A stretch of DNA of 62,086 bases, taken from the sequence record SRR31156797_9682. The stretch is one strand, 5' to 3'. This document shows, in pieces, positions 14,378-62,086 of the stretch. Numbering within the stretch: the stretch's first letter is position 1; every line of letters starts with the position of its first letter. Position numbers and translations under genes: made by a program. A model generated the notes under the pieces. That model saw nothing but the letters and a program-made list of their open reading frames with translations. It ran no database searches and was not told the origin of the DNA.

Positions 14378-14405
14378 GGGATGTTCCTTTCGATGATAAT
14401 GAGGA

Positions 14406-45569: not shown

Positions 45570-45574
45570 GAAAC

Positions 45575-46174
45575 CTACCTGTAGTTAAATCGCACCAGAA
45601 TCGGCATATCGCCCATAAATTCAATTTCGGTTAGAGTGGCATTATCCACCTTAAACTTCCAATACCCCGCAGAAATTGACTCGCAAAAATAATGAGCCAT
45701 CAGTGAGCGTATACAGCCCCCATGGGAGACAATCGCCAACTCTTTACCCGCATTTGCACCTACCAACTCATCAACAAAAGAGATAACCCGTTGTTTAAAT
45801 GAACCAAAGGCTTCACTGCCCGGTATTTGCGTCTTCTCCCAGTCGGTCAGCCATGTCTTCCAGGCATCTGGATAACGCTTTTCAATCTCTGTAAAATGCA
45901 GCCCTTCCCATTCACCAAAATGGTATTCCTGGATGCTTGAGTCGGTAATAATAGGCGCTTCGCTTCCAAAAACAAGTGAGGCAGTTTCAGTAGCGCGCTG
46001 CAGCGGACTGGAGAAAATAGTATCTACATCCAGGGCGTTGACACGCTCCCCCAAATAGGATGCCTGGCTTCTACCATGATCGTTTAAAGGGGCATCGGTA
46101 CTGCCCACCAGCACACCGCCTTGATTTTGCTCAGTCTGTCCATGACGGATAAGATACAGTTTCGTTACCTTCAT
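45575..46174 (-). CDS. cobC: alpha-ribazole-5'-phosphate phosphatase (histidine phosphatase)
   Basis: LIRHGQT, SSPLQRA, FGEWEG and VSHGGCIR motifs; ATGA overlap with cobS. Confidence 0.88.
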   Translation of the reverse strand: MKVTKLYLIRHGQTEQNQGGVLVGSTDAPLNDHGRSQASYLGERVNALDVDTIFSSPLQRATETASLVFGSEAPIITDSSIQEYHFGEWEGLHFTEIEKRYPDAWKTWLTDWEKTQIPGSEAFGSFKQRVISFVDELVGANAGKELAIVSHGGCIRSLMAHYFCESISAGYWKFKVDNATLTEIEFMGDMPILVRFNYR

Positions 46175-46947
46175 ATCAAAAAATCCCATGCTAAAAGAAA
46201 ATATAAAAAAGAAAGCATTTCGCTTAATTCAATTGTTGCTCCGATGGTATCACCGGTGATCCCGCCAATTCGGTACTGCAAATAATAAGCAAAAGCTACC
46301 GCCAGTACAATAGCAGTCCCATGGAGGGCTGCAAGAGACCACATGACCGACCCAAGAGACATACCTGTAAAAAATAATACCAGGCTAGTGACCACTAACG
46401 AGCATACAGTAGCAGTAAGCGCCTGAGGCAAACCAACACGATCGGTAAACGCTCCCATCCCTGATTGCTCCCTGGCATAGGTAGCCACTGCAGCATGCCA
46501 GGTTGTGGCCATGCGACCAAGGACTGGAGCACAGAGCAGAGCGGTCACGCCCCCTGCAAGCGGTATGTTTTTCAAGGTAATAAACTTCAGCAGAATGGTC
46601 AAAACCACAGCCACCACCCCGTTGGTCCCCAAGGTCGAATCACGCATGATCTCCAGCACTCGCTCTCTTGGGCGATAACTGAAAAGACCGTCTGCCGAAT
46701 CCCCCATACCATCAAGATGGAGACCACCGGTGACAGTGATAAGAATAATCAAAGCGAGAAAGCTCGAGACCTCAGCCCCGAAATAAGGAAAACACAGATA
46801 CAGAATGACTGCAGCAGGCAGGCCGACCAAAAAACCGACAATGGGCATCCATTTCATACCCTGGACAAACCTGTCAACAGTAAAATCTATCTGCAGCGGG
46901 ATAGGGTAACGGGTCATAAATTGAATCATCAACAGTAGGTTAGACAT
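46171..46947 (-). CDS. cobS: adenosylcobinamide-GDP ribazoletransferase (cobalamin synthase)
   Basis: FMTRYP, TGGLHLDGMGDSADG, IMRDSTLG and GGITGDTIGA motifs. Confidence 0.95.
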   Translation of the reverse strand: MSNLLLMIQFMTRYPIPLQIDFTVDRFVQGMKWMPIVGFLVGLPAAVILYLCFPYFGAEVSSFLALIILITVTGGLHLDGMGDSADGLFSYRPRERVLEIMRDSTLGTNGVVAVVLTILLKFITLKNIPLAGGVTALLCAPVLGRMATTWHAAVATYAREQSGMGAFTDRVGLPQALTATVCSLVVTSLVLFFTGMSLGSVMWSLAALHGTAIVLAVAFAYYLQYRIGGITGDTIGATIELSEMLSFLYFLLAWDFLI

Positions 46948-47518
46948 GGACTCCGTCCCCTTTTATTTGTACAGGAATACCAGACACAACCATAATTACC
47001 TCGTCTGCTGCAGCAGCCATGCGCTGATTGACCCGACCACTGCAATCCCGAAAAAAACGGGACAACGGTGTACCCGGGACGATTCCCAACCCCACCTCAT
47101 TGGTCACCGCAAACAGATGACCAGCATACAGCTCCTGGGCAGCTAGCAGGGCATCAATTTCCGCCAAAACCCGTTGTTCAATCTGGGCCATGCTTTCCAC
47201 GGTTGGCTGGTCCCAATCAATGTATGAATCATGAAGGATGATATTTGTAGTTAAGACAGTAAGGCAGTCGAGCAAAAAACCATCATACTGCTCTTTATGA
47301 TCACTGATAATCGATGACGGCTGCAAAGGTTCTTCAAATGTCTGCCATACTGCTGGCCGCTGTATCCTGTGCCTGGCGACCCTCTCTTCCATTTCTGCAT
47401 CTAGCGCACGCGCAGTGGCAATATAGGCTATGCTTTCACAGCCTCTGCCTATCTGCTGCTCTGCATAACTGCTTTTACCGCTGCGGGCTCCCCCCGTAAC
47501 CAATGTCAAGCGCCCCAT
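46940..47518 (-). CDS. cobU: bifunctional adenosylcobinamide kinase / adenosylcobinamide-phosphate guanylyltransferase
   Basis: GGARSGKS, YIATA, EMEERVARHR, LDCLT, NEVGLGIVP and FRDCSGRVNQ motifs; ATG at 47518 preferred. Confidence 0.95.
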   Translation of the reverse strand: MGRLTLVTGGARSGKSSYAEQQIGRGCESIAYIATARALDAEMEERVARHRIQRPAVWQTFEEPLQPSSIISDHKEQYDGFLLDCLTVLTTNIILHDSYIDWDQPTVESMAQIEQRVLAEIDALLAAQELYAGHLFAVTNEVGLGIVPGTPLSRFFRDCSGRVNQRMAAAADEVIMVVSGIPVQIKGDGVHV

Positions 47519-47619
47519 ATCAACTCTGTATCCACTATTTACCTCATGAGAGTCCCTGCTGCGTATCACGCGCACAGGTAGGGACAGGTGAGCAGGATCT
47601 CCACCACGAAGATCACTGC

Positions 47620-48308: not shown

Positions 48309-48734
48309 TTAATATTTGCCCGGCAACGCATCTACATATACTTTTATTTCATCTCTTACCCTTCTATAAATATCGAGTTTTTCACCTTCATCCTTTATAT
48401 CACGTGCTAACTTTGGCGGATCATCAAATGACTGACATATCACATTCACTTCAGGTGGAAAAGAGGGGCATTTTTGTGCTGCTACACTGCAGACCGTAAC
48501 AACCAGATCAATATCCTCTTGAAGAAAATCCCTAACCGCATGAGTTTCTTGGCCTGAGATATCGACACCAACTTCTTGCATGACCTTAACCGCAAAAGGA
48601 TCAAGCGGCCCGGTGCTAATCCCCCCAGAATAGGCATTAATCTTATCCGGATGGAGATGTCGAGCCCAACCTTCGGCTATTTGACTTCGGCAAGTATTCA
48701 TCTCGCAAACGAAAAGTACATTCCTTTTTGACAT
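48309..48734 (-). CDS. arsC: arsenate reductase, thioredoxin-dependent LMW-PTP family
   Basis: P-loop FVCEMNTCRSQIAE (CX5R), resolving cysteines VCSVAAQKCP, FDDP, RRVRDEI. Confidence 0.88.
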   Translation of the reverse strand: MSKRNVLFVCEMNTCRSQIAEGWARHLHPDKINAYSGGISTGPLDPFAVKVMQEVGVDISGQETHAVRDFLQEDIDLVVTVCSVAAQKCPSFPPEVNVICQSFDDPPKLARDIKDEGEKLDIYRRVRDEIKVYVDALPGKY

Positions 48735-49275
48735 TTTCAACTCTCGTATTGGTATTGTTGACAATGGAAATCCTAAATTAATGAAACAAAATCTACTATC
48801 AACAGATTACGATTAAGTAAATTAAGCGTTAGGCGATTATAAGGTAAGGGATATGAGCGAGAAGGGAGAACTGCAAAATTAAACAGTGCGCTGACACTTC
48901 TGTGTCATGCCTGTGCAAGCTTTTTTTTACATTTGCACTCTTATCGGTTCCCCCCCTGCCGGTTGGCAAATGGCCAGCGAGGCAACATCCCTTGACAACC
49001 TGACAAAATTATCTGAACACGACACACGCCCCTTGCTGTTTAACCCTTTTTTGTTTAAAAAAAGTCACCCGCCAGCAAGGATTCGACCGTACAGATCGGC
49101 AAACGCTGAGTAGGCTGGGCAATAGCTTTCGAAACGCAGTCTCAAGACTGCCGGGCGCTTTTTATGAAACGGGCCGCCAGCTAAAATGGGCAACATGTAT
49201 GAATAGCCCTTTCAAATAAAGGATGTAACTATCACACCTCCATAAACTTCCGTTTTTCATTAACCCACCTGGTAT

Positions 49276-51618
49276 ATGTTGACTCGTAATAAAATGTCCC
49301 CCAAGATATCCAAAGATCCGGAAAACCACAAACCGCCGACCTTTAAGCTAGGGTTGATTCTCTTTGGCATTGCCGGTGTCATCCTGGCCTGGGGGGTGAC
49401 CTTCCACCAACTCGACAAATCCAGGACTACCCTGCTTGGCAGACTGGACAGGGAACAGAAAAACCTAAGCAGCGTTCTGGCAGAGAGTTTTTTTCAGATC
49501 CTTGATCAGCAAAAGGCCATTAAACAAGTTGCCATCAATAGACTCAAAGGCAGCAGTCGTTCCCTCATCGATATCGAGGGATATTTTTACAGTGAACGCG
49601 TTTTTAGCCGAATTGTTTTTCTTGATGCTTCCGGAAAGGTGCTTTACCGGTCGTCTCCATTACAATGGGAAAAGCATGCTGCGCATGAGAATATAAGCAA
49701 GCAAATTGCGCTGGCATTAACAACAGGAGATATACTTATTTACAAATCCCCCCAAACTCCCGACGTCCCATGGCACATCTCTATGTTGTTCCCAATCAAG
49801 AACGGCAAGACCGAGGGTGCAATGCTTCTGGAGCTCGACATCGGCTACATCCTTAGCATTATCCAAGGAATAGATATCGGTAAATCTGGTGAAATTGTAA
49901 TCGGAGACAACAAGGGGAAAAGTCTGGCAGTTTTTGAAAGCGGTGGGCTTTCAATCAAAAAAAACGTGTACCAGGTATCGCTCCCCTCATTGTTGGAAGA
50001 TTTTTCAGGTTCCGGAGTCTTCAACTACCCAGGTCAAGGGGAACGGCAGTTTGCATTTACCCGGGTCAGAGACTATCCGGTAATCATATCGATCAGCCAG
50101 GAAACGGATGATTTCCTGTACTATTTTTACCAACAAAAAACAAAATCGATCTGGGCCCTGCTCATTCTGACCTGCTTTTATCTTGCTGCGATCTATCTTT
50201 TACTGAAAATGGAAAGCCGCAAGCATAAATACCTTAACGCACTATCCTCCTCCTACACCAAAAACAAGGAACTGGTTGAAAAACTGGAACAAAAGCACAA
50301 GGCATCGGTCAAAGAAGCATCCATAGATCCTTTGACCGGACTGTACAACCGTCGACTTTTAGAATATTTGGTAGAAAAACAACTTGCTTCAGCCAAACGC
50401 AAAAAATATATTAATGCTTTGATTTTTATAGACTTGGATCGTTTTAAAAACATTAATGATACGCTTGGTCATCGCGTAGGGGACCTCCTGCTGGTCAACG
50501 TTGCAAAGCGGTTGACAGAATGCACCAGAAAGTCAGACATTGTTGCAAGATTTGGTGGGGATGAATTTGTTATCTTCTTATCCGAAATATCTCGTGATCA
50601 AAATATTATACCCATTCTAGATAAGATCGTAACCGAAGTATCAATGCCCTACGAAGACCTTGACGGTCACAGTGTTAACACCACTCCCAGTATTGGTGTA
50701 GCAATATACCCTAGGGATGGTGAGGATATGGAGTCACTGCTCATCAGTGCTGATGCAGCGATGTACAAATCAAAAAAATCAGGCAGAGGGAAATATAGTT
50801 TCTTTGACACGAGTCTCAATAAAGTTTCCATCAAAAAAAATGAGATTGAGCAGAGAATGCCACGCGCCCTGCGTGATAATCAGTTTGTGCTTCACTATCA
50901 GCCAAAGGTCAATCTTGGAGATTTTCGCGTAACAGGGTTGGAAGCACTCATTCGTTGGCAACTGCCGGACCACCAGTTGATTTACCCAAATGACTTCATC
51001 GAAATAGCCGAAAGCGCCGGACTGATTATGGGACTTGGCTCTTGGGTCCTGAAAAACGTCTGTAGCCAGCTGCTTGAATGGCAGAATCAGGGTCTGCAAC
51101 TCGTCCCTGTCGCTTTAAATGTCTCATCACTAGAACTGCAACATGCAGATTATGCCGAACGATTTATTGCGGACTTGGATAAAAATAGAATTTCACCCAA
51201 ATTCCTCGAAATTGAGATAATCGAAAGTGCTCTCATCGAAGAGAAAGATAGAGTAATAAAAAACCTGTGCACCCTTTCAAACCATGGAGTGCAGATTGCA
51301 CTGGATGACTATGGCACAGGGGTCTCCTCACTCAAAAAGATTCGAACGTTTCCTATACATTCTTTAAAAATTGACCGCAGCTTCATCCGGGAAATCCGAA
51401 ACACCTATTCCGATCCCCCCATCGTTCATTCAACCATCACTCTCGCGAAAAAGCTTGGCCTGGTCATTGTTGCTGAAGGAGTTGAAACACATGAACAGGT
51501 CGTTAACCTCAAGGTTGCCGGGTGTGATCAGGTACAAGGATACTACTTCAGCCGTCCGGTAAACCGAGATAAAATTCGAGATTTCCTTGCTTCCCCCATA
51601 CGGAGTTTGTCAGCATGA
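49276..51618 (+). CDS. membrane-bound diguanylate cyclase/phosphodiesterase (periplasmic Cache-like sensor, GGDEF, EAL)
   Basis: Two TMs flank a ~250-aa periplasmic region. DPLTGLYNRR, IDLDRFKNINDTLGH, RKSD-x5-GGDEF; EALIRW, DDYGTG, LKIDRSF, AEGVE, QGY. Confidence 0.93.
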   Translation: MLTRNKMSPKISKDPENHKPPTFKLGLILFGIAGVILAWGVTFHQLDKSRTTLLGRLDREQKNLSSVLAESFFQILDQQKAIKQVAINRLKGSSRSLIDIEGYFYSERVFSRIVFLDASGKVLYRSSPLQWEKHAAHENISKQIALALTTGDILIYKSPQTPDVPWHISMLFPIKNGKTEGAMLLELDIGYILSIIQGIDIGKSGEIVIGDNKGKSLAVFESGGLSIKKNVYQVSLPSLLEDFSGSGVFNYPGQGERQFAFTRVRDYPVIISISQETDDFLYYFYQQKTKSIWALLILTCFYLAAIYLLLKMESRKHKYLNALSSSYTKNKELVEKLEQKHKASVKEASIDPLTGLYNRRLLEYLVEKQLASAKRKKYINALIFIDLDRFKNINDTLGHRVGDLLLVNVAKRLTECTRKSDIVARFGGDEFVIFLSEISRDQNIIPILDKIVTEVSMPYEDLDGHSVNTTPSIGVAIYPRDGEDMESLLISADAAMYKSKKSGRGKYSFFDTSLNKVSIKKNEIEQRMPRALRDNQFVLHYQPKVNLGDFRVTGLEALIRWQLPDHQLIYPNDFIEIAESAGLIMGLGSWVLKNVCSQLLEWQNQGLQLVPVALNVSSLELQHADYAERFIADLDKNRISPKFLEIEIIESALIEEKDRVIKNLCTLSNHGVQIALDDYGTGVSSLKKIRTFPIHSLKIDRSFIREIRNTYSDPPIVHSTITLAKKLGLVIVAEGVETHEQVVNLKVAGCDQVQGYYFSRPVNRDKIRDFLASPIRSLSA

Positions 51619-52526
51619 AGTCATTACCAACGATTTTGGTAAACCTTGTACTTCTATCTCTCGTTGTATTCGCCCTTGCACATGTCACAACAGCCGGCGA
51701 AGGCAACGAAAAAGCCCCCCTCTACTTTTCCTTGATTCCTAAAAAAAATGTGGATAAACAGATTTCCGAGCTCCAGCCCCTTCTTCGGTTTCTTGAGAAA
51801 GGACTTGATAGGCCCATTCAGGTAATCCGCCCACAATCCTATCATACTGTCATCGAAGGTATCCTCTCCGAAAGAATCGATTTCGCCATCCTGGGACCAG
51901 CTTCTTACGGCAAGACAAAAGAAAAAGACAAACGTGTTGAACCTTTTGCCTCTTTTGCATCTCAGCAAGGGTTGCTTACTCCGCAAGGGAGCTTTTACTA
52001 CTCTGTGTTATTCGCACTGAAGGACTCTGGCTACACCACTGCAAGCCAGCTCAAAGGAAAAAAAGTAGCTCTTACCGACCCGGAATCGACTTCTGGCGCC
52101 ATCATTCCAAGCATTTATTTTTCAAGAGATATCGAATTTGTTTTCTCCAATTTCTTCAGCTCCAGGGTTTACACCGGCTCTCATGATAGATCTATCAGTG
52201 CGGTCAAAAGGGAACTCGTCGATGCCGCATTTGTCTCTTCCGTCAGCGTTGACGAGGCTATCCACAAAGGGCTTATTGATAAGAAACAAGTAGCAATCTT
52301 ATGGAAATCAGAGCCAATCCATTATGACCCTTTTGTTTTTCGTGGTGGTCTGGACACATCCATAAAAGAAAAAATCAAGAGGCTCATGCTGTCTTCGTCT
52401 CCTGAACTTCAACCCATGTTCACCAAGACGAAAATGCTCGGGATTGTAGAAGTCGATGACGAAGACTATAAAGCCATACATGAAATCATTGCCATCCGGA
52501 AAGCACAAGAAAAACCACTGGATTGA
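51615..52526 (+). CDS. PhnD/PtxB-family phosphate/phosphite/phosphonate substrate-binding protein, orphan
   Basis: Signal peptide; GPASY, YYSVL, TDPESTSG, TGSHDRS and DAAF motifs; ATGA overlap with the upstream GGDEF-EAL gene. Confidence 0.9.
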   Translation: MKSLPTILVNLVLLSLVVFALAHVTTAGEGNEKAPLYFSLIPKKNVDKQISELQPLLRFLEKGLDRPIQVIRPQSYHTVIEGILSERIDFAILGPASYGKTKEKDKRVEPFASFASQQGLLTPQGSFYYSVLFALKDSGYTTASQLKGKKVALTDPESTSGAIIPSIYFSRDIEFVFSNFFSSRVYTGSHDRSISAVKRELVDAAFVSSVSVDEAIHKGLIDKKQVAILWKSEPIHYDPFVFRGGLDTSIKEKIKRLMLSSSPELQPMFTKTKMLGIVEVDDEDYKAIHEIIAIRKAQEKPLD

Positions 52527-52935
52527 CACTCTTCAGTTGTTGAACAAGCCTAGTGTTTCCACTTCAACTAAAAGCGCTGGTATGATTTTTTCCGTCCCCT
52601 TGGTTGGCTCTGAAAAAGATCCTTGAACGTAACTCTAAATGTTATCAAGAATATTGGCTGTATTAACTCTTGTCGGGTGAAGTACGCTAAAATAACCACT
52701 ATTTACATTCAGTGAATTCTCTATAAAACCTAATCGCTACAAATATGTTTTTGTTGTTGAATCGATGTGTCACACTGTAACACTATCCTAACCCTTCCCT
52801 ATAAATTCAAAAACATCTGTTTTGTATGTTTTCACCCTCCTCGGAATCGAGGTGTGGTTGATTATAAAATTTCAAGAAACATATATTAAGCACTATGGTC
52901 ATGAATTATCTACAAATACAGGGAGGGATGCTCCC

Positions 52936-53103
52936 TTGAAGCGATTTGAACCAAGTATTTTACAGGAAGCGTCTGATTTGTACCAAGAAATCACAGCAAG
53001 CGGGACATTCAACATCTCATGGGACCAGTTCTTTTTTTTCTGGTTGCAATCCCATCGCAGTACACCATCATCAGAAAAAGATAACTCCCGGAAATTTAAG
53101 TGA
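52936..53103 (+). CDS. hypothetical small protein (55 aa)
   Basis: GGGAGG RBS upstream of TTG at 52936, inside track ORF 52822-53103; no recognisable motif. Confidence 0.3.
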   Translation: MKRFEPSILQEASDLYQEITASGTFNISWDQFFFFWLQSHRSTPSSEKDNSRKFK

Positions 53104-53246
53104 TGGCCTGCAGTCATGACCACCGGCACAGCCGGTGGCTTGCATAGCGCCCTATAAGGGCACTCGATACCTGTCACCCCTTAAGGGACTATCCGTGCTT
53201 TTATCAGGCAGCTGATATATAGCCAAACCCATTTATTTAAAAATAC

Positions 53247-53428
53247 GTAACTCACAGGCACCCCACGGAGTCTCCCGCTGGTCGTTTACCTCTTCGGACG
53301 GTCACGATCTCCCGCATAAATAGGCTACCGGAGTCTGCGCTTACCTACGGAAAATCGAGCCTTTCCAAATATGAGTACAGATTTCAAGGATAATAAATCA
53401 AGGGGTTACCCCCCATGTGAGTAGCTAC
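53247..53428. repeat. MITE/REP-like element, copy 1
   Basis: Imperfect terminal inverted repeats gtaactcaca / tgtgagtagctac. Contains cggagtctgcgcttacct (53329-53346), the exact reverse complement of 55926-55943. Confidence 0.6.
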
Positions 53429-53437
53429 CGAATCGGT

Positions 53438-55633
53438 TTATTTCTTTTTCTTTATCATCTTCTTGCTTTTCTTCATGGTTAACTCCTTGCGCCCCATAGC
53501 CTGCCGTTTCTCAGCAGCCTTAATCTGATGGTCAAAGGAAGAAACACCTTCCTCAGCTTTCTGTGGACTGCGTTGGATGTATTCACCGCTTTCCCTCATC
53601 TCCCAACAATTGCGTTTGTCTCCAAGCTGAGTGTCGAGCATTTCTCTTAACAGTGACTGCAGGCGAGGCGACTCCACAGGGATACACACCTCAACCCGGC
53701 TTTCAAGATTACGTTTCATCAGATCTGCAGAACCAATGTAGTATTCATCATTGCCGTTATTGTGAAAATAAAACACCCTTGTGTGTTCCAGGAAACGACC
53801 GACAATGGAGAGGACCCGGATGTTATCAGAAAGACCGGGGATACCCGGACGGAGCCTGCAGGTATCGCGCACGATAAGATCAATTGATACACCGGCCTGC
53901 GAAGCCCTGTACAAAGCGGCGGTAATGGCCTTATCCTCAAGGGCGTTGGTCTTGAGCTGGATCAGGGCCGATAGTCCCTTCTTCTTGTGCTCGATTTCGC
54001 GCTCGATCTTTTTGAGCAGTCCATTTTTAAGCAGTTTCGGAGAGGGAAGCAGTTTTTTATATTTTCGGATGGGTGTGTATCCAGTTGTGAGGTAATTGAA
54101 AAGTTCTGTTAAGTCTCCTCCGATTTCTGGATCACAGGTCAGCAAGCCCAGATCGCAGTATCCCCGTGCCGTTCCGGAATGATAGTTTCCCGTACCGATA
54201 TGAGCGTACCTCTTGAGTCCGTTGTAATCCTTTCGGATCACAAAGATAACCTTGGAATGGGTCTTGAGGCCTACGACACCATAGGTGACGTGGATGCCCA
54301 CTTCTTCCAGGGACCTGGCCCAGCGAATGTTGGCCGATTCGTCGAACCTGGCCTGCAACTCAACCACCACTGCGACCTGCTTACCGTTTTGTGCCGCATC
54401 AATCAGATGCTGGATGACCTTGGAATCATCTGCAGTTCTGTACAAGGTCATCTTGATCGCCAACACCTTAGGGTCAATGCTTGCCTCATGGAGAAAACGT
54501 TCCACCGAGGTACCAAATGACTCATATGGGTGCTGAAGGAGAATGGAACCGTGGTTACGGATTACATGGAAAGTATTACGGTCTTTATCCTGCAAGTCCG
54601 AATTGTCAACCGGTTGGTGGGATGGGTAATGTAAATCGGGCCGATCCAGCTTGGCTATCTGGAGCAGGTCCTTCTTGGCCATGATACCGGTGACCTCAAA
54701 CAGATCCTTGTCTTCATCAATGCCCAGTTCGTTGGCAAGCATACCTCGATGTGGTTCTGCCATGCATGAACCTACCTCCAAACGAACTATTTCCGCAAAT
54801 TTTCTGTCCCGCAAAGCTGACTCTATCACCGAGAGGAGGTCATTTGCCTGCTCCTGACCCTTTTCGGTGATGGCGTTCCTGGTGACCCGAAAAATTTCGC
54901 ACGATTCAATTACCATTTCGGGAAAAAGGTGCTCCAGGTTGTTAGCAATGATCTCCTCAACCGGAACATAAAGATCCTGCCCGTTGAGCTTTGTAAAACG
55001 AGATATATCCCCGGCATTGACAGGAACCTTTATCCTGTTGAAATAACAGTGTTCGCTGTCTGGATAACGTACCGCCACCAGCAGGTTGATGGAAAGGTTG
55101 GAAATGAAGGGAAAGGGATGTGCGGGATCAACTCCCTGGGGGGTCAGGAGCGGGAAGACTTCATTAAAGAAAAAATCATCTGCAATTTGCTGGTTCTCTT
55201 TGTCCAACTCGTTGTAACTGGTAATCCTTATGCCATTTTCCTCTAGCAGGTTCAGCAATTCACCCTCAAGTGCCTGCAGGGTTTGGAGAAGATCTTTTAC
55301 CTTGAGCTGACAATCGTCGATCTGCTGCTGGGGAGTTCGACCATCCAACGAGAGCTTTTTTACTCCGGCACCAACCTGCTGCTTGAGTCCGCCTATTCGC
55401 TTCATGAAAAACTCATCAAAATTTGAACCGACCACAGCCATAAAAAAGAGTCTCTCCAAGAGAGGATTGCGATCATCCTGCCCTTCATGGAGAACACGGC
55501 GATTGAACTCCAGCCAGGTTAATTCGCGATTGAGATACCATTCAGGGGAATCGAGATCAAAATCCCGCTGGAGTGTTTCTTCCTTTTCAGTGGGAATGTC
55601 GGATGTAATGACAGGTTGCGTGCTTTTATCCAT
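53438..55633 (-). CDS. ppk1: polyphosphate kinase 1
   Basis: YLNRELTWLEFNRRVL, HPFPFISN, HPYESF, IKMTLYR, ARFDE, LKTHSK, GTGNY, SIVGRFLEH and GSADLMKRNL motifs. Confidence 0.97.
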   Translation of the reverse strand: MDKSTQPVITSDIPTEKEETLQRDFDLDSPEWYLNRELTWLEFNRRVLHEGQDDRNPLLERLFFMAVVGSNFDEFFMKRIGGLKQQVGAGVKKLSLDGRTPQQQIDDCQLKVKDLLQTLQALEGELLNLLEENGIRITSYNELDKENQQIADDFFFNEVFPLLTPQGVDPAHPFPFISNLSINLLVAVRYPDSEHCYFNRIKVPVNAGDISRFTKLNGQDLYVPVEEIIANNLEHLFPEMVIESCEIFRVTRNAITEKGQEQANDLLSVIESALRDRKFAEIVRLEVGSCMAEPHRGMLANELGIDEDKDLFEVTGIMAKKDLLQIAKLDRPDLHYPSHQPVDNSDLQDKDRNTFHVIRNHGSILLQHPYESFGTSVERFLHEASIDPKVLAIKMTLYRTADDSKVIQHLIDAAQNGKQVAVVVELQARFDESANIRWARSLEEVGIHVTYGVVGLKTHSKVIFVIRKDYNGLKRYAHIGTGNYHSGTARGYCDLGLLTCDPEIGGDLTELFNYLTTGYTPIRKYKKLLPSPKLLKNGLLKKIEREIEHKKKGLSALIQLKTNALEDKAITAALYRASQAGVSIDLIVRDTCRLRPGIPGLSDNIRVLSIVGRFLEHTRVFYFHNNGNDEYYIGSADLMKRNLESRVEVCIPVESPRLQSLLREMLDTQLGDKRNCWEMRESGEYIQRSPQKAEEGVSSFDHQIKAAEKRQAMGRKELTMKKSKKMIKKKK

Positions 55634-55840
55634 AGGGTATATGTTCCTGCTGAATTATTTTGAAGTGAAGCTGACTGGAAATACTGCTTATCATTATTCC
55701 ACACCTCTATGATGCTACCAGTGAAATATTTTGTTTTGGTTAGAGACGGAAATATTTTGGTGGATATGACCCTACAGCCGATTATGCGAAATTGGTAATC
55801 GTTTACCGGAGCATAATAGGTAATTATATAATTCGGCTCA

Positions 55841-55965
55841 GTAACCGTTCAACAAATGCTCCAGGTTCGTTCAAGCAGGCCTCCGAGCTATAGTTAGCTA
55901 TGCGAGTGGGCCTGATCGGACGAAAAGGTAAGCGCAGACTCCGTGGTGTGCTGGTGAACGGTTAC
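55841..55965. mobile_element. MITE-like element (125 bp), copy 2
   Basis: Perfect 11-bp terminal inverted repeats GTAACCGTTCA / TGAACGGTTAC, non-coding interior, internal similarity to 53247-53346. Confidence 0.7.
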
Positions 55966-56430
55966 CGAAATTGTATAACAGCCAGCCTATGTCACGGTGA
56001 AATGGATGGGATATGATTCTGTAAAGACCTGATCACTTGAAATAAACGACTTAAGAACAGGGCCGATTCGCACCAAAAAGTCGATCTACCAGGGGAGGAA
56101 TCTTTGACTATTTCGGCCTGTTAGGCAAAAGAACAATCATTGATGAATAAGATTAAAAAGAGAAGAAAACTGCACAGGGCGTCTAAACTGCCAATCACCT
56201 TTTTGTGACTGCATCCGAGAATGCTTACAGGAAGGAGTCCGTTGTGGCTTAGGCTTTATTCTACAATAAAATACCCAGCACCAACTTTTCAAAAAAGAAA
56301 ATGATTCTCAACGTTCTGGAACTCATTGAGTAGGCTGAACTCTAGGCGAGAAATTACTACAGGTAGTCGGGCAAAAGATAAACTTGAAAAATTCTCAGAT
56401 CTCCTTTTCCCTTCGCAGAGATGGAGTAAG

Positions 56431-56470
56431 AAAAAAAAGGGGGGGGGCAGCTTCGAGCCCCTCCCCTTTT
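56431..56470 (-). terminator. rho-independent terminator of the Lys-rich gene
   Basis: Minus strand reads ggggaggggc-tcgaagct-gccccccccc followed by T8. Confidence 0.85.
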
Positions 56471-56493
56471 GATACATAAATAAAGGCACGACC

Positions 56494-56655
56494 TTACTTC
56501 TTCTTGCTTTTCTTACCTTTTTTCCCTTTCTTCAATGCTTTCTTTTTTGCTTTTTTCTTCTCAATTTTCTTTTTCAGATCTTTCTTTTTTCCCTTTTTCA
56601 GATCTTTTTTCTTAGCTTTCTTTTTATCCAGCTTTTTTTTCTTGTTCTTTGCCAT
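56494..56655 (-). CDS. very lysine-rich small protein (53 aa, 34 Lys)
   Basis: GGAGGA RBS, ATG at 56655, MAKNKKKKLDKKKAKKKDLKKGKKKDLKKKIEKKKAKKKALKKGKKGKKSKKK, with its own terminator. Confidence 0.75.
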   Translation of the reverse strand: MAKNKKKKLDKKKAKKKDLKKGKKKDLKKKIEKKKAKKKALKKGKKGKKSKKK

Positions 56656-56856
56656 GTTTTCCTCCAAATAATTTTTTTCGCATCCAACATTATTGAACAC
56701 TATTTTAATATGATATTTAGTCATATTATATTACCATGACTAACAGGGACAACAGTTCCTGTCAATTATATTTTATACATTTTAGCTATATTATATAGCC
56801 AAATGGCACATAGACACCCATTCTCGCTTGAAGAGTACGGAGATTGAATAGCTTTT

Positions 56857-57174
56857 ATGACGTTTATAGAATTCAAAAAGACACTACTTGATGCGGAGAT
56901 CACCCTTCCCAAGTTCTGCAAACTGATCAAGGTTAGTGATAAAAATATCCAGTCGTATAAAAAGAAGGGCAACGTTCCTAACACAATAGCGGTTATTGTC
57001 ACCTGCTTTGCAGAGATGCACCGTCAGCAGATAGACTACCGCTCTCTTATCGAGGAACTAGGATTGAAAAAGCAAACCAAAAAAGGCGGGTTCAAAAAAA
57101 AGGTGGTTCTTGAGGCTGAACGGGAAAAACCTGAATCTGAAACCACCCCCTCGGAGAGTGAGGAAGAGAAGTAA
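56857..57174 (+). CDS. XRE-like HTH DNA-binding protein
   Basis: MTFIEFKKTLLDAEITLPKFCKLIKVSDKNIQSYKKKGNVP fits an HTH-XRE pattern; basic then acidic tail. Confidence 0.65.
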   Translation: MTFIEFKKTLLDAEITLPKFCKLIKVSDKNIQSYKKKGNVPNTIAVIVTCFAEMHRQQIDYRSLIEELGLKKQTKKGGFKKKVVLEAEREKPESETTPSESEEEK

Positions 57175-57577
57175 AATGCCGTAACTCCTGCTCAAGACTA
57201 TATAGCCTTCCAACAAACAGTAATGATTGATAAACTCTTGAGAACTGAGCGGTGCATGTCGAAAACGTAAGAATCGTCGCTTTTTGAAACTCGAATGTCT
57301 CCGATTTGCTTTTTTGCCCCTTTTTGTGTCAAAAAAATAAAGGCTGCAGGGAGAACCTTGTCCTAATCTTGATTAGTTTTCTTTCACGCAAAAGTGAAAT
57401 AAACACTCCAGACACCTTTCTCCCGTCCACAACCTCGTGCTTGACATCTGTTTAGGTTTTCAGACTTACTGTTCAGTTATTGCTGGAAAATCAATACTCA
57501 AATGACCACGGCATGCGATGACTTGATTCAATTCGCCTTTTGCTCATATACTGGAAATAAAGGAAGATACTTTTGAC

Positions 57578-59356
57578 ATGCCGGGGGAATGGGCGGCGAT
57601 GACAGATCAAATACCTTACCAATATATCATTGTTTATTTTCTAGGCGGCCTTGCTCTATTTCTCTACGGCATGAAAACCATGAGCAACGGTATGAAAAAA
57701 ATTTCAGGTGAGCGTATTCGTTCCCTGATGTCACGCTTAACCGACAATCGATTGCTAGGGATGCTGACCGGTGCCTTTGCAACAACTATCCTTCAGAGTT
57801 CCAGCGCTATAGTAGTCATGTTGGTTGGACTGGTTCAATCCCAGCTCATGACTTACATACAGGCGATGGGGGTCATCCTCGGAGCTGAAATCGGCACCAC
57901 CGTCACTGCCCAGCTCATTGCTTTTAGACTGCATGACTACGCCCTTCTCATTTTTGCGATGGGATTCCTCCTTCACGTAACAGGTAAAAAACAGAGTTAT
58001 CAGAATGCTGGAGAGGCTTTGGCAGGGTTTGGCCTGTTGTTTTTTGGCATGCAGCTCATGTCGGAGGCAATGGAGCCTTTGCGCAGTTACGGACCTTTTC
58101 TTGACTTGCTTGATACATTTTCAGAACCACTCCTAAGTGTTTTGGTCGGTATGGGGTTCACAGCACTCATTCAAAGCAGCAGTGCCTTTATCGGAATCAT
58201 TATCGTACTTGCTCAACAGGGGGCACTCAGCCTGGAAGCAAGCATCCCCCTGATGCTCGGGGCAAATATCGGTACCTGTATCACTGCTGCTCTTGCCACC
58301 ATAGGTACTTACAGGGCTGCAAAGCGGGTTTCCCTGGCACAAATACTTTTTAATCTCAGCAGCGTTTTGTTTTTTCTTTGCTTTATTCCTGAAATGGCAG
58401 AAATTGTGCGTTCTTTTTCGCCTGGTGCTGTCAGCAGCGGAGTGGAGTCAGCCACGGCACACCTTCCTCGGCAAATTGCCAATGCGCATACCTTATATAA
58501 TGTACTTATGGCCTGTGCGTTTCTTCCTCTGACGCCCCTTTTTGCCCGACTGATTGAACATATCCTTCCAGATAAAGAAGAAGAAGTCAAACTGATTCCC
58601 ATGACCTGGCACCTGAAAAAATCGGCTATTAGTTCACCGCCACTTGCCTTGAGTTATACCTGGGCAGAAGTAAGCAGGATGAACAAGATCCTTAACCGGA
58701 TGTTAGGAGCTGCAATTCAACCTTTTTTCAGCAAAGATCCCGGAACTGATACCATTTTTCCACAGTTATCCCTTGTTGACGGGATTTTGATGCGGGAGCA
58801 GAAAATCGACTTTCTTGAATCAGCTGTCACTGATTATCTGTTCCAGATCATGAGGCAGGAACTCACCCCAAGTGAATCAGTGGAAGTTTTTGCACTGTTG
58901 AATATTGTGAAGGATCAGGAGGCATTAGGTGATGTTATCGAAGTCAGAATGCTTCAGCTCCTGCAGACAAAAGAGAACATGGGGATCGAGTTAAGCCCAG
59001 AAGGTGAAAAAGAAATACAGGCCCTGCATGCTCATGTTTGCACCTGCATGGGGCTGCTAACAGAAGCTATTGAATTCTCAGATACCATTAAGGCTTCCGC
59101 AATCATCGGACAAATAGAAGGTTTTGACCAACTTGAGACGCTTACAGAACACCATCACCTGAAACGAATCCAACAAATGGTAAGCATTTCGGAACTAAGC
59201 CATGACATGCACATGGAGTTAGTTGATGCGTTGAAACATATCCTGTTTTACTGTGAGGCGATCACTAAAAATCTACTGGCATGCTATACTGACGGTGTAC
59301 GATCTCATTCATACCAAATAGATCGAAAGTTAAGTGAAGCCAATAAAGGAGCCTAA
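57578..59356 (+). CDS. Na+/phosphate cotransporter (NptA/YjbB, SLC34-like) with C-terminal PhoU-like region
   Basis: GGLALFLYGM, two QSSS repeats, GAEIGTT and GANIGT, RQIANAHTLYN; helical C-terminal domain. Confidence 0.92.
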   Translation: MPGEWAAMTDQIPYQYIIVYFLGGLALFLYGMKTMSNGMKKISGERIRSLMSRLTDNRLLGMLTGAFATTILQSSSAIVVMLVGLVQSQLMTYIQAMGVILGAEIGTTVTAQLIAFRLHDYALLIFAMGFLLHVTGKKQSYQNAGEALAGFGLLFFGMQLMSEAMEPLRSYGPFLDLLDTFSEPLLSVLVGMGFTALIQSSSAFIGIIIVLAQQGALSLEASIPLMLGANIGTCITAALATIGTYRAAKRVSLAQILFNLSSVLFFLCFIPEMAEIVRSFSPGAVSSGVESATAHLPRQIANAHTLYNVLMACAFLPLTPLFARLIEHILPDKEEEVKLIPMTWHLKKSAISSPPLALSYTWAEVSRMNKILNRMLGAAIQPFFSKDPGTDTIFPQLSLVDGILMREQKIDFLESAVTDYLFQIMRQELTPSESVEVFALLNIVKDQEALGDVIEVRMLQLLQTKENMGIELSPEGEKEIQALHAHVCTCMGLLTEAIEFSDTIKASAIIGQIEGFDQLETLTEHHHLKRIQQMVSISELSHDMHMELVDALKHILFYCEAITKNLLACYTDGVRSHSYQIDRKLSEANKGA

Positions 59357-59680
59357 CAAACTTCCTCTATTTATGTGTATTAGGTTGCTGTGTGAAAATT
59401 TTTGCTGAAACAGCGTCTCAAAGAATACAACAATGGAAACAATCGCCCATCTGTAATAAATTCCCAGTAAATAATGTCACATAACACTGCTATGCTCCAT
59501 CATTTTTCCCTCGAAGCAAAAAAAATACTTCACATTATCACAACAGCTCCCCCATCACTGGACACTAAACATAACGTGACATTTCTTAACATTTAGAACT
59601 CAACCGTAATGTAACTCATTTTTAATATTCACTTAAAATTCTTCTGGTAATTAAAATATTTCCTCAACATCGCTTAAAAA

Positions 59681-59762
59681 AATGTGCAAGGCCAAATCTA
59701 TCGCAAGGTAGAGACGGAACACCACGGGTCCTGATTCAAAGGATAGCCGGGTTGCAAGCATA
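59681..59762 (+). ncRNA. c-di-GMP-I (GEMM-I) riboswitch
   Basis: GG-CC-AAA, P2 stem UCUAUC-GCAA-GGUAGA with a GNRA loop, GACGGAA junction, P3 CCACGGGUCCU...AGGAUAGCCGGGUUGC, all fitting the GEMM-I consensus; 84 nt upstream of a CDS. Confidence 0.85.
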
Positions 59763-59787
59763 CGCTGCAGCCCGGCTCTTTTTATTT
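59745..59787 (+). terminator. riboswitch expression-platform terminator
   Basis: agccgggttgca-(9 nt)-tgcagcccggct followed by ctttttattt; the 5' arm is the 3' strand of the aptamer. Confidence 0.8.
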
Positions 59788-59845
59788 CTGGGCTGCACAT
59801 AAGACAATGGTGAGGCTTACTGGAATAATAGAAGAGGAGATAACA

Positions 59846-62086
59846 ATGAGGTTTACATCAGGTAAGTTTATCGGATCCGCCGTTGTTGCCGCTGCGATGT
59901 TGTTTGGCGGAGCATCGCTGGTTCGGGCCGGTGAGTTTGATTTGCGCATTATCCACATGAATGATATCCACTCCCATCTGGCAACAGAATACCCCAATGT
60001 GACCCTGGGAGGTGAGCAGACATACGTGGAGATGGGCGGTATTCCAAGAGCTGCAACTATGATAAAAAAGCTGGCAGCAGGAGCTTCTAATCACCTGATT
60101 CTCAACGCAGGTGATACCTTTCAAGGGACACTTTATTATACCCTGTTTCAAGGCGATGCCACTGCCGCCATGCTCAATCATATTGACTGGGATGCCATTG
60201 CACTCGGTAACCACGAATTTGATGATGGCGACACCCATTTGGCAGAGTACCTAGGAAAGCTCGACGCTCCCATCATCTCAGCAAATGTCATCCCTGCGTC
60301 TGGCAACGTATTGGAAGGAATGTGGACACCGTATGTCATCAAAGAATTTAGCGGCCAGAAGGTTGGGATCATAGGACTCAACATTGCACAGAAAACCAAA
60401 GTATCATCCCGCCCAAGCGATGAGATTACTTTTTGGGATGAGGTTACAACAGCCCAGAAATATGTCGATGAATTGATCGCAGCGGGCATATCCAAAGTGA
60501 TTCTGCTTAGCCATTACGGGCTTGAAAATGATATAAAGCTGGCCGAACAGGTCAGCGGCATTGATGTTATCATTGATGGTGACTCCCATTCCCTGCTGGG
60601 TGATCTCTCTGAACTGGGAATAAGTTCTTCATATCCATATCCTGTTGAGGTCAAGGATCTGGGTGGAAAAAAAGTGTGTATTGCTCAAGCTTGGCAATAT
60701 GCCAAGATGGTGGGCTGCCTTGATGTAATCTTCAATGATGACGCAGAGTCCACAGTTGCAAGTTGCAGCGGCCAATCCACATTGCTTTTAGGTGATAGTT
60801 TTAAGCGTAAGGATGCTGACGGCAACAAGCTTGAAGTTACTGACACTTCGGCACTTAGCGCAATTCACGCCACCATTGATAATAATCCAAACGTTGAGGC
60901 TGTTGCTGAAGATGATGAGGCGCTGGTAACATTGGCAGGGTATCAGGCTCAGGTAGATCAGCTGCAACAACAGATGATTGGCCAGGCTGGTAAAACACTG
61001 AGTCATGTCCGTATCCCTACTCTTGATTATCTGGGTAACCTTGGCTCAGATTTCCCACTGGGAAGTGAAATAGCCCCTTTGGTTGCCAAGAGTTTTTATG
61101 ACTTAAGCCTTCGTGCTGACGCCTGTATCCAAAATGCAGGAGGTGTCCGAACCAATATAGATGAAGGTGATATCACAATTGGTACAGCTTATACCTTACT
61201 GCCCTTTGCCAACACCCTTTTTGAAATTGAAATGAAGGGGAATGAGATTAAGCAGGTATTGGAAGATGCTCTTTCCAACTATTATGACAACGGTGGTTCA
61301 AGTGGGTCTTTTCCGTATGCCTATGGCCTGAAATATGATGTCAATGTAAGTAAGCCAATGGGAATGCGTATCACAAACCTTGAAATTAAGGATCGTGAGA
61401 CAGGTGCCTGGTCCATTATAAATGCCGATACCATGTACGTTGTCGTAACCAACTCCTACACGGGGGCTGGAAAAGACGGTTATATTACCTTTCAAACTGT
61501 TCAGGAGGAGCGCGGCCCTGGTATTGACACCTACCTTGATTATGCAATGTCCTTTGTACAGTACGTTGAAAACCTGTATGAACAAGGAGAAGCTGTTGCC
61601 CCTTTGCCAGTTGAAGATCACTGCATAAAAAGTTTTATCGACAAGCCAGCGGTTGAGCTGAGTCTGCTTGGTAGCTACGCAACAGGGGACTTTGATAAAG
61701 GTGCAGCTGAGATCGTAGCCCATGATCCGGAAACCCAACTGCTGTTTGTGGTCAATGGAAATGATAATGCCATTGATATTCTGGATATCAACGATCCTGC
61801 CAATATAGTCAAATCCGGGGTCATTGATCTTTCAGCATACGGTGCAGCACCAAACAGTGTCGCTGTTAAAAATGGGCTGGTAGCTGTTGCTGTGGAAAGT
61901 GATCCCAAGCAGGATCCGGGTAAGGTCGTTTTTTTTTCGACCTATGGTACCTTTCTCAAGCAGCTAACCGTGGGCGCACTCCCGGATATGGTAACTTTTA
62001 CTCCTGATGGTCGTAAGGTCTTAGTTGCAAATGAAGGAGAACCAAATGACGATTATACGTATCCGCTTACTAAACCCCTGTTGGAG
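59846..62086 (+). CDS. secreted 5'-nucleotidase (NadN/UshA-type) fused to a choice-of-anchor-I / alkaline-phosphatase-type beta-propeller, 3'-truncated
   Basis: Not in the ORF track because there is no stop. Manual translation from ATG 59846 (RBS GAGGAG) gives a signal peptide, IIHMNDIHSH, NAGDTFQGT, ALGNHEFDDG, LSHYG, DGDSHSLLG, QNAGGVR and LPFANTL. From ~61650 it reads AAEIVAHDP...PNSVAVKNG...VGALPDMVTFTPDG..VLVANEGEPNDDY. Confidence 0.9.
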   Translation, partial: MRFTSGKFIGSAVVAAAMLFGGASLVRAGEFDLRIIHMNDIHSHLATEYPNVTLGGEQTYVEMGGIPRAATMIKKLAAGASNHLILNAGDTFQGTLYYTLFQGDATAAMLNHIDWDAIALGNHEFDDGDTHLAEYLGKLDAPIISANVIPASGNVLEGMWTPYVIKEFSGQKVGIIGLNIAQKTKVSSRPSDEITFWDEVTTAQKYVDELIAAGISKVILLSHYGLENDIKLAEQVSGIDVIIDGDSHSLLGDLSELGISSSYPYPVEVKDLGGKKVCIAQAWQYAKMVGCLDVIFNDDAESTVASCSGQSTLLLGDSFKRKDADGNKLEVTDTSALSAIHATIDNNPNVEAVAEDDEALVTLAGYQAQVDQLQQQMIGQAGKTLSHVRIPTLDYLGNLGSDFPLGSEIAPLVAKSFYDLSLRADACIQNAGGVRTNIDEGDITIGTAYTLLPFANTLFEIEMKGNEIKQVLEDALSNYYDNGGSSGSFPYAYGLKYDVNVSKPMGMRITNLEIKDRETGAWSIINADTMYVVVTNSYTGAGKDGYITFQTVQEERGPGIDTYLDYAMSFVQYVENLYEQGEAVAPLPVEDHCIKSFIDKPAVELSLLGSYATGDFDKGAAEIVAHDPETQLLFVVNGNDNAIDILDINDPANIVKSGVIDLSAYGAAPNSVAVKNGLVAVAVESDPKQDPGKVVFFSTYGTFLKQLTVGALPDMVTFTPDGRKVLVANEGEPNDDYTYPLTKPLLE

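Follow-up and report, generated by a model that had tools for sequence, protein, structure and literature searches.

Positions 48309-62086 of a 62,086-nucleotide (nt) stretch of DNA from sequence record SRR31156797_9682 (hereinafter the window, meaning the whole stretch) place a membrane enzyme of cyclic di-GMP (c-di-GMP) turnover, a periplasmic binding protein and a c-di-GMP riboswitch side by side with genes for polyphosphate synthesis, a phosphate-type transporter and arsenate reduction, and so raise the question of whether these genes form one regulatory circuit. The preliminary description of this DNA proposed that they do: a phosphorus (P) compound would be sensed in the periplasm, c-di-GMP would carry the signal to a riboswitch-controlled secreted nucleotidase, and the transporter would import, ppk1 store and arsC detoxify. 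Our analysis gives a different answer as the probable one, namely that these 14 kb are a row of separate units with two conserved c-di-GMP modules (the enzyme with its binding protein, and the riboswitch with its nucleotidase gene), whose adjacency to ppk1, the transporter gene and arsC is lineage-specific. We took the inventory by listing open reading frames (ORFs) and scanning the 62-kb window, 48 ORFs in all, with Pfam, NCBIfam and Rfam models. Every feature named beforehand was recovered in its place, although the labels "XRE-like" and "phosphatase" need the qualification given below. As the preliminary description had said, the window is devoid of phoBR and pst: none of the 48 scanned ORFs encodes PhoB, PhoR, Pst or a component of an ABC (ATP-binding cassette) transporter.

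The first module (module A) consists of two adjoining genes:
49276..51618, + strand: membrane dCache-GGDEF-EAL enzyme, 780 amino acids (aa) (EAL 9.9e-67, GGDEF 1.5e-48, weak dCache_1 8.1e-06)
51615..52526, + strand: orphan PhnD/PtxB-family periplasmic binding protein, signal peptide by inspection (PF12974 3.9e-53)

The enzyme has a first transmembrane helix at about residues 24-44, a periplasmic double-PDC region at about 46-300 and a second helix at about 301-322 (helices by inspection only), followed by the GGDEF (residues 348-505) and EAL (526-761) domains. The signature motifs are intact in the translation (RKSD-x4-GGDEF, with the RxxD of the I-site, then EAL, DDYGTG, EGVE and QG), and because the catalytic residues of both domains are invariant across 41 aligned homologues, the enzyme is potentially bifunctional. 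The binding protein scores above the cut-offs of its family models (PF12974, 180.8 vs 27; TIGR01098, 188.2 vs 112.05) and under that of the PhnD equivalog (TIGR03431, 202.7 bits vs 261.1). We call it an orphan because neither ABC_tran nor BPD_transp_1 matched any of the scanned ORFs of the window. Its start codon overlaps the stop codon of the GGDEF-EAL gene by 4 nt (ATGA), such that the two are translationally coupled; an identical overlap is seen in the two closest metagenome loci. In the 14 kb, the pair is the only clear case of an operon.

The association of the two genes is conserved. A metagenome scan with an alignment of 33 binding-protein sequences retrieved 80 loci, of which 71 had at least 400 nt upstream and 9 lacked the room. 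In 68 of the 71, down to 34-35% identity, the binding-protein gene is preceded on its strand by a GGDEF-EAL homologue whose end is less than 400 nt away, a count that describes this subfamily and not all PhnD-like proteins since the loci were found with patterns drawn from that subfamily. At 48 loci one high-scoring segment pair spans the enzyme from residue 60 or earlier through residue 760 or later, sensor domain included; the exceptions to pairing are three loci (L122, L130 and L138), the last matching at only 25% identity. In a large protein database we recovered 89 binding-protein homologues at E <=1e-20, three of them 78-81% identical and the rest 29-64%, under the source names Desulfobacteraceae, Desulfobulbaceae, Desulfobacula, Desulfobacter, Pelobacter, Marinobacter and Pseudomonas. 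The genes around the homologous pairs (71 of 104 flanking ORFs were scanned, near-duplicate loci, frameshifted GGDEF-EAL pieces and the shortest ORFs having been dropped) are heterogeneous, coding for kinases, chemoreceptors, integrases, DnaB, LysR regulators and various enzymes. A few are P-related (a Phosphodiest fragment, an inositol monophosphatase, two PLD-like proteins and a HAD protein), and no ABC-transporter part was found among the 71 scanned neighbors. For comparison within the family we used 119 Desulfobulbaceae genomes, reached from a genome-collection locus with genome G001 as their center (G, C and L numbers denote genomes, contigs and loci); the binding protein has no close relative there, its best match being 35% identical and followed by three same-strand ORFs.

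The periplasmic part of the enzyme is where the binding protein would act. Its AlphaFold2 model (residues 40-305), built with 41 sequences, has a predicted local distance difference test score (pLDDT) of 88.7 and a predicted template-modeling score of 0.85, and Foldseek searches with it recovered double-PDC/dCache domains, including 3lif (1.3e-12), 2p7j (a Vibrio GGDEF protein), DctB and 7k5n (an Aeromonas cyclase). A profile of this sensor domain matched 39 representative clusters at E <=1e-30 and 415 at E <=1e-10 among 1.84 billion representatives; the weaker matches differ in length and are probably other dCache proteins. Models of the complex of receptor residues 46-300 with the mature binding protein scored 0.68, 0.68 and 0.60, with all three controls at 0.00; the mark that they pass is attained by 51 of 78 solved complexes and by 2 of 108 mismatched pairs. 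The runs have at least 75% of contacts in common, with partner pLDDT of at least 87. The receptor has seven invariant periplasmic residues, and five of them (R112, W166, D188, G190 and Y191) fall in the modeled interface (hypergeometric p 4e-4). The model lends support to a predicted docking of the binding protein on the periplasmic domain of the GGDEF-EAL protein. Together with the 68 of 71 loci and the 4-nt overlap, it bears out the coupling of a GGDEF-EAL enzyme to an orphan PhnD-like protein put forward in the preliminary description, the physical contact being a prediction of the model.

Module A would then work as follows. The PhnD/PtxB-family protein would bind a small periplasmic oxyanion, and in its liganded form would dock on the dCache domain of the GGDEF-EAL enzyme; docking would shift the enzyme between making and breaking c-di-GMP, in the manner of NspS acting on MbaA. 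Indeed, the nearest parallels are NspS-MbaA of Vibrio cholerae and ScrB-ScrC of V. parahaemolyticus, in which, according to sections of a review of such receptors (PMC8050422), an orphan binding-protein gene likewise lies beside a membrane GGDEF-EAL gene and the periplasmic receptor domain is likewise dCache-like; in the present enzyme both catalytic domains are intact. The pair differs from them in the family of its binding protein (PF12974, as opposed to SBP_bac_8 for NspS and SBP_bac_3 for ScrB), in its gene order (enzyme first, then binding protein) and in its ligand, presumably an oxyanion in place of a polyamine or autoinducer; the pair is, moreover, known from sequence and models. The use of a PhnD-family binding protein as a detached sensor, and not for transport, is shared with AioX-AioS and ArrX-ArrS (PMC8050422, in the parts of the review that treat them), but there the receiver is a histidine kinase, whereas here it is a c-di-GMP enzyme, and the present protein is closer in sequence to PtxB/PhnD. 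The relevant parts of that review give only NspS-MbaA and ScrB-ScrC as binding-protein-driven GGDEF/EAL receptors, with AioX as a PhnD-family sensor partner (PMC8050422), and a second source, in the portion bearing on this, names SBP_bac_3 as the only member of the periplasmic-binding-protein clan studied in c-di-GMP networks (PMC8846402). In the open-access full-text literature, supplements excluded, we found no description of a GGDEF-EAL enzyme with a PhnD-family partner. Most c-di-GMP enzymes lack a known input signal, and this PhnD/PtxB-based pair, which occurs in Desulfobacterota and whose binding-protein homologues are named in Marinobacter and Pseudomonas records, offers a testable candidate for the sensing of oxyanions into c-di-GMP.

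As to the ligand, the solved relatives of the binding protein rank, by profile E-value, as PtxB (5o2j, 1.1e-45), E. coli PhnD (2.2e-33) and ArrX (2.4e-29), with HtxB and AioX (2.3e-18) further off; PtxB 5o2j was also recovered in a sequence search of the PDB (4e-25). The structural account of PtxB, as far as its ligand-site description goes, has the P-oxyanion held by two Tyr, an STS motif and a His (PMC5700983). Y76, Y98, S158-T159-S160 and H190 of the present protein align with these ligand residues and are invariant in 41 sequences. Phosphite binders further have a strictly conserved capping Tyr, which gives phosphite specificity. That Tyr of PtxB (within PQYPW) aligns with the invariant D238 (within IHYDPF), an alignment in which a shift by one residue is possible, and D238 matches the Asp of the GDP motif in E. 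coli PhnD. We take that Asp to be the one that contacts the amino group of 2-aminoethylphosphonate. Since the STS-H and Tyr positions are kept and D238 aligns with the capping Tyr, the pocket looks like a P-oxyanion binder of the PhnD type and not of the PtxB type. Compared with the transport binding proteins PtxB, PhnD and HtxB, then, the present protein has the same fold family, STS-H motif and Tyr positions (PMC5700983, in its treatment of these sites), but no transporter genes adjoin it, the capping Tyr aligns with its D238 and its score lies under the PhnD equivalog cut-off.

Arsenate or a sulfur or selenium oxyanion is, judging from the sequence, also a possible ligand, and we consider it unlikely, though deserving of attention, that module A senses such a non-P oxyanion, either arsenate/arsenite as ArrX and AioX do or a sulfur or selenium compound. 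The PhnD-family sensor partners with solved structures are precisely ArrX (2.4e-29) and AioX (2.3e-18), and the table of the review consulted gives AioX-AioS as an As(III) sensor (PMC8050422); NCBIfam models for a putative selenate binding protein and for the sensor domain of TtrS also match weakly. Furthermore, the gene divergent from the GGDEF-EAL gene is an arsC homologue:
48309..48734, - strand: arsC-like, low-molecular-weight phosphatase-family arsenate reductase of the thioredoxin type (PF01451 9.2e-18)
It scores 116.5 bits against a cut-off of 174.3 with the ArsC equivalog (TIGR02691); nevertheless, its best PDB match is ArsC 1jl3 (3.6e-29) and its C11, C83 and C90 align with the Cys triad of solved ArsC (also 2cd7). 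The gene lies upstream of cobU-cobS-cobC-cobT in the same direction and across a 511-bp shared intergenic region from the GGDEF-EAL gene. The arsC of the preliminary description is thus present, as judged from the PF01451 match and the triad, with the equivalog score under its cut-off. The non-P alternative nonetheless suffers from the ranking of the solved relatives, PtxB and PhnD scoring far better (1.1e-45 and 2.2e-33) than ArrX and AioX, and from the neighborhoods of the pair, where no more than 2 of 80 loci contain an arsC-like gene, adjacent in neither.

The second module (module B) lies at the other end of the region:
59628..59657, + strand: promoter-like site just 5' of the aptamer (TTCACT-18-TAAAAT, 9/12, consensus match only)
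59681..59759, + strand: c-di-GMP-I (GEMM-I) aptamer, RF01051 (50.7 bits vs gathering 35, E 5.6e-07, model positions 1-87)
59745..59788, + strand: intrinsic terminator (12-bp stem 59745-59756 / 59766-59777, then CUUUUUAUUU)
59846..62086, + strand, cut off by the window end: secreted NadN-like nucleotidase with Metallophos, 5_nucleotid_C and the start of a choice-of-anchor I domain

The aptamer is the sole Rfam match in the window, and its 3' strand doubles as the 5' arm of the terminator (15 nt common to both). Owing to this shared strand, the ligand-bound aptamer and the terminator should be mutually exclusive, and therefore c-di-GMP is predicted to turn the gene ON. Folded alone, the RNA 59675-59800 has a minimum free energy of -52.6 kcal/mol (z -5.80) with the terminator hairpin formed. 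In five orthologous leaders the consensus structure contains the first aptamer hairpin and the overlapping terminator in all five, and 8 of 26 predicted pairs, including four of the first hairpin, show pairing-preserving double changes, a modest support given five sequences. In the minimum-energy fold, AUGUGCA (59682-59688) additionally pairs with UGCACAU (59794-59800), enclosing aptamer and terminator; being absent from the five-sequence consensus, this outer helix may be due to chance.

The ligand-contact positions speak for c-di-GMP. Apart from the G20 equivalent, these positions presumably include A47 and C92 in Vc2 numbering. Against the printed Rfam consensus, the aptamer has G at model position 11, A after GACGG and C in UUGCA, and four relatives are alike. 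The position equivalent to Vc2 G20 is described, in the passages of a study that deal with it, as a selectivity factor among cyclic dinucleotides (PMC9262584). The aptamers of the four relatives score slightly better with the variant model RF03167 than with RF01051; we rejected their assignment to the "GGC" variant class, as they have A where the printed RF03167 consensus has G. Given this A at the differing position and the G at the G20 equivalent, c-di-GMP is the expected ligand. Like other transcriptional ON riboswitches of the GEMM-I class, the element is above the gathering threshold, has the G20-equivalent G and has a terminator that competes for the aptamer 3' strand; it differs from them in the gene that it would control, a secreted NadN-like nucleotidase/choice-of-anchor I fusion.

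The nucleotidase reaches 434.9 bits with the NadN model, just short of the cut-off of 436 (E 4.1e-130, residues 46-588). We place its start at ATG 59846 and not at the listed ATG 59807, because the former has GAGGAG upstream and is followed by a signal-peptide-like N-terminus. In full-length orthologues (1162-1172 aa), Metallophos and 5_nucleotid_C are followed by a choice-of-anchor I domain that is complete and by a dockerin domain at the C-terminus. The choice-of-anchor I domain is part of an MSP130-like seven-bladed propeller with predicted Ca sites, according to parts of a published account (PMC11878542), and the closest solved sequence match is a surface-layer protein. Accordingly, of the "nucleotidase/phosphatase fusion" reported earlier the nucleotidase domains stand, whereas the second domain is a choice-of-anchor I propeller and not a known phosphatase.

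The riboswitch, too, is conserved with its gene. A nucleotidase 64-67% identical to that of the window occurs in 4 of the 119 Desulfobulbaceae genomes at five loci (one each in G011, G015 and G079, two in G086), and a GEMM-I aptamer lies upstream at all five. The association is no by-product of abundance, since these genomes hold one to five GEMM-I copies each (G011 5, G015 1, G079 2, G086 5). The c-di-GMP-I riboswitch that had been placed ahead of the nucleotidase thus scores above the RF01051 gathering threshold and is predicted 5' of the orthologue in relatives as well. In G011, G015 and G079 a gene for a 202-223-aa PEP-CTERM protein stands between aptamer and nucleotidase. In G015 (L056:6776-7795) the aptamer is separated from the PEP-CTERM/nucleotidase genes by an inserted IS1595-family transposase gene, which probably uncouples them from the riboswitch. 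From an order-wide sample of 401 genomes two were not counted either way, G388 (nucleotidase 68% identical, about 418 nt of contig upstream) and G205 (nucleotidase 50% identical, no Rfam match at E <=0.01). More distant UshA-like genes (about 40% identical) had no riboswitch at any of 15 scanned loci. These UshA-like genes, found in many genomes of the family (loci L022-L045, e.g., L022:5-98), contain one in-frame TGA, or in a few cases TAA. A selenocysteine tRNA (tRNA-Sec) gene adjoins one of them, which fits the NCBIfam "UshA-like (seleno)protein" model, a model weakly matched by the window nucleotidase too.

Module B would accordingly serve as an output: c-di-GMP would bind the GEMM-I aptamer, which would then hold the strand that forms the 5' arm of the terminator, and read-through into the secreted, probably matrix-anchored NadN-like nucleotidase/MSP130-like propeller would follow, high c-di-GMP meaning ON. 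The remaining GEMM-I copies in the four genomes give an indication of what such an output might belong to. The first sizeable ORFs behind them, 11 of 20 of which were scanned, code for cadherin/Big_9 adhesins, FG-GAP proteins and C25 and S8 peptidases; a HlyD-type protein, DUF6765 and an FAD oxidase are further GEMM-I-adjacent products. Since adhesins, peptidases and PEP-CTERM proteins follow these other copies, the GEMM-I regulon of the family would be mostly one of surface and secreted proteins, which suggests that it serves the surface or the matrix and not phosphorus supply. The list of GEMM-I targets would gain a secreted nucleotidase/MSP130-like fusion whose gene often shares a transcript with one for a PEP-CTERM protein; in the open-access full-text literature, supplements excluded, we found no GEMM-I-controlled nucleotidase. 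From module A to module B the signal would flow via the cellular c-di-GMP pool. A tie between phosphate status and c-di-GMP is not without precedent: in Pseudomonas fluorescens the c-di-GMP enzyme RapA is said to be under Pho-regulon control. That link is transcriptional, via PhoB, whereas the one proposed here would run from a periplasmic binding protein straight to the enzyme.

The circuit of the preliminary description extends beyond these modules to the genes between them:
53252..53346, strand not assigned: downstream copy of a repeat flanking ppk1 (inverted repeats I4 and I6: 18 nt at 100%, 22 nt at 86%)
53438..55633, - strand: polyphosphate kinase 1 (ppk1), own transcription unit (TIGR03705 753.8 vs cut-off 465.85)
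55838..55968, strand not assigned: upstream copy of the repeat, in the ppk1 promoter/5' region (long imperfect hairpin, -54.3 kcal/mol, z -3.09)
56494..56655, - strand: Lys-rich ORF, 53 aa, about half Lys (GGAGGA before ATG; no family match)
56857..57174, + strand: 105-aa ORF, possible small helix-turn-helix (HTH) protein, XRE-like (ESM Atlas look-alikes 0.96-0.97)
57578..59356, + strand: NptA/YjbB-type Na/Pi-cotransporter-family protein with C-terminal PhoU (PF02690 1.7e-64, PF01895 3.7e-05, NF037997)

Thus ppk1, the poly-Lys ORF and the Na/Pi-family gene are all where they had been reported, while the XRE-like regulator is supported by language-model look-alikes auto-named XRE family, which are a lead only, and has no match in Pfam or NCBIfam. 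The units alternate in direction, with spacers of 0.3-0.9 kb. Terminator-like hairpins lie 3' of ppk1 and of the Lys-rich ORF, and promoter-like sites 5' of ppk1, the Lys-rich ORF and the aptamer; these sites are weak evidence because shuffled sequence holds such sites no less often. In the best reading, the 14 kb comprise six or seven transcription units, each separate from the others, that stand side by side in this lineage.

We therefore regard the full circuit as improbable, and the relatives are what chiefly tells against it. None of the 80 pair loci has a ppk1 or Na/Pi match at E <=1e-6, and among them are one weak nucleotidase match (26%) and two arsC-like matches, none adjacent. In tblastn searches with up to eighteen window proteins, covering about 20 kb upstream of each of the five nucleotidase loci and 15 kb downstream, we recovered only the nucleotidase and cob genes. 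A distance of 10-13 kb separates cobTCSU from the nucleotidase both in the window (cob genes at 44466-47575) and in G086 and G079 (L051, L053 and L055), with the relative orientation reversed in these two genomes; given this retained spacing, the wider region is syntenic and the genes in between differ, which suggests inversion and gene turnover between two conserved anchors, the cob genes and the nucleotidase. The other genes are dispersed. The closest transporter orthologues are in G086 (76% and 75% identical) and G079 (75%): on contig C2 of G086 the nucleotidase is at 129 kb, ppk1 at 694 kb and the transporter at 1358 kb, and in G079 the three are on three different contigs. In G011 ppk1 and the nucleotidase are on different contigs and there is no transporter match at E <=1e-60, and the transporter gene of G001 (62-64% identical), at the closest Na/Pi locus of the genome-collection scan, has sugar-ABC, DeoR and SNF2 genes as neighbors, ppk1 being on another contig. 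The genes are hence scattered in every relative examined, an outcome that the preliminary description had itself named as speaking against its idea, and a single circuit drawing together the two modules, ppk1, the Na/Pi gene, the Lys-rich ORF, the HTH ORF and arsC is not supported, linkage being seen in 0 of 80 pair loci and 0 of 5 nucleotidase loci. In addition to this dispersal, the circuit has against it the alternating units, each with promoter-like and terminator-like sites; the adhesins, peptidases and PEP-CTERM proteins among the other GEMM-I targets of the family; a nucleotidase whose second domain is no known phosphatase; and a transporter of the NptA/YjbB type, which may work in either direction (family background in part of PMC13170248). 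In its favor are the presence of every part within 14 kb, the STS-H motif and Tyr positions of PtxB/PhnD kept in the binding protein (PMC5700983, as far as its site description goes), an input and an output module that both exist and are each conserved, and the gene content around a G086 Na/Pi orthologue described below. As a claim about this DNA, the co-location of P-related genes is partly confirmed: it is a post-hoc grouping, possibly no more than chance, that is not kept in relatives. Nothing that we found in the relatives and the window ties ppk1, the transporter or arsC to the sensor-riboswitch path.

Several points nevertheless weigh against our preferred reading of separate units with two c-di-GMP modules. 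Concerning the dispersal, the comparison was with distant relatives (identity up to 70% for ppk1, 76% for Na/Pi and 68% for the nucleotidase), and therefore members of the genus may yet share the arrangement; further, three binding proteins that are 78-81% identical exist, whereas the relatives compared in context were no closer than 64-76%. In G086 (L161:8828-15682 and L160) the Na/Pi-PhoU orthologue has an RNase T2 gene immediately upstream and, about 1.7 kb downstream, the gene of a choice-of-anchor I protein that also has an Ig-like domain, which hints at a recurring theme of nucleic-acid P, and five or six P-related functions within 14 kb are suggestive in themselves. Because the messenger diffuses, the absent synteny would leave a functional link from module A to module B possible, and were the ligand a P compound, the idea of the preliminary description would hold for the path from sensor to riboswitch. 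As for the predicted docking within module A, the complex score is a model confidence, which blind-drawn neighboring genes pass in 7 of 44 cases; on the binding-protein side of the modeled interface, invariant residues are not over-represented (4 of 26, p 0.45); and the solved LuxP-LuxQ complex has a similar architecture and may help the complex model.

Between these positions lies a bolder version, to which we would give little credence at present: the pair would be a widespread, undescribed sensor of a P-oxyanion (a phosphonate, phosphite or phosphate) that sets c-di-GMP levels directly, without PhoBR, and that, in this organism, drives a matrix-anchored nucleotidase via GEMM-I. If true, surface-attached cells would mine extracellular nucleotides for P. 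The wider phosphorus-circuit claim should be carried forward only together with expression data. Finally, that the PhnD-like protein is an ordinary transport binding protein with its ABC partners elsewhere, its adjacency to the enzyme having no signaling meaning, is very hard to credit: it is a clear member of a transport binding-protein family (PF12974, TIGR01098), and the 35% match in Desulfobulbaceae precedes three same-strand ORFs that are possibly transporter genes, but the pair is kept in 68 of 71 loci down to 34-35% identity, its genes overlap by 4 nt, 0 of 71 scanned neighbors is an ABC-transporter component, the complex model is over its mark and the PhnD equivalog score stays under its cut-off (202.7 vs 261.1).

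On the reading of a row of separate units, the intervening genes merit brief description in their own right. ppk1 has all four PPK domains (N, middle, C1 and C2), a terminator-like site at 53415-53399 and a promoter-like site at 55852-55823. It is flanked in inverted orientation by a repeat of about 70-100 nt, whose 18-nt core is 100% complementary between the copies; the 18-mer has three matches in the window against 0.01 expected, and a weak third copy of the repeat lies near 39993-40010. An Rfam search over 52500-57600 at E <=1 gave only a chance-level L20-leader match and none for the repeat, which may be a REP- (repetitive extragenic palindromic) or MITE-like (miniature inverted-repeat transposable element) sequence or a regulatory RNA. 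The Lys-rich ORF, with a strong Shine-Dalgarno sequence, a promoter-like site at 56752-56725 (10/12) and a terminator-like G/C hairpin at 56461-56444, is apparently a small gene of its own; the ESM Atlas yielded no usable match for it. That an ORF for such a polycation lies 0.9 kb from a polyphosphate kinase gene is curious; at 12 ppk1 loci of relatives, searched for about 1.5 kb on each side, no Lys-rich ORF was found. The transporter region of G086 is duplicated, and the DUF2064 and GT2 genes downstream of the transporter there, ahead of the choice-of-anchor I gene, recur in G079.

Elsewhere in the window, the products of 27330-29819 (+ strand, 829 aa) and 25404-26207 (- strand, 267 aa) have no Pfam match at E <=1e-5. 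At 12509-14449 (- strand) we observed an unusual fusion, a 646-aa protein that combines an N-terminal cyclic-nucleotide-binding domain with a class II fumarase/aspartase-type lyase (Lyase_1 and FumaraseC_C), and a gene for a DcuA/DcuB C4-dicarboxylate transporter adjoins it.

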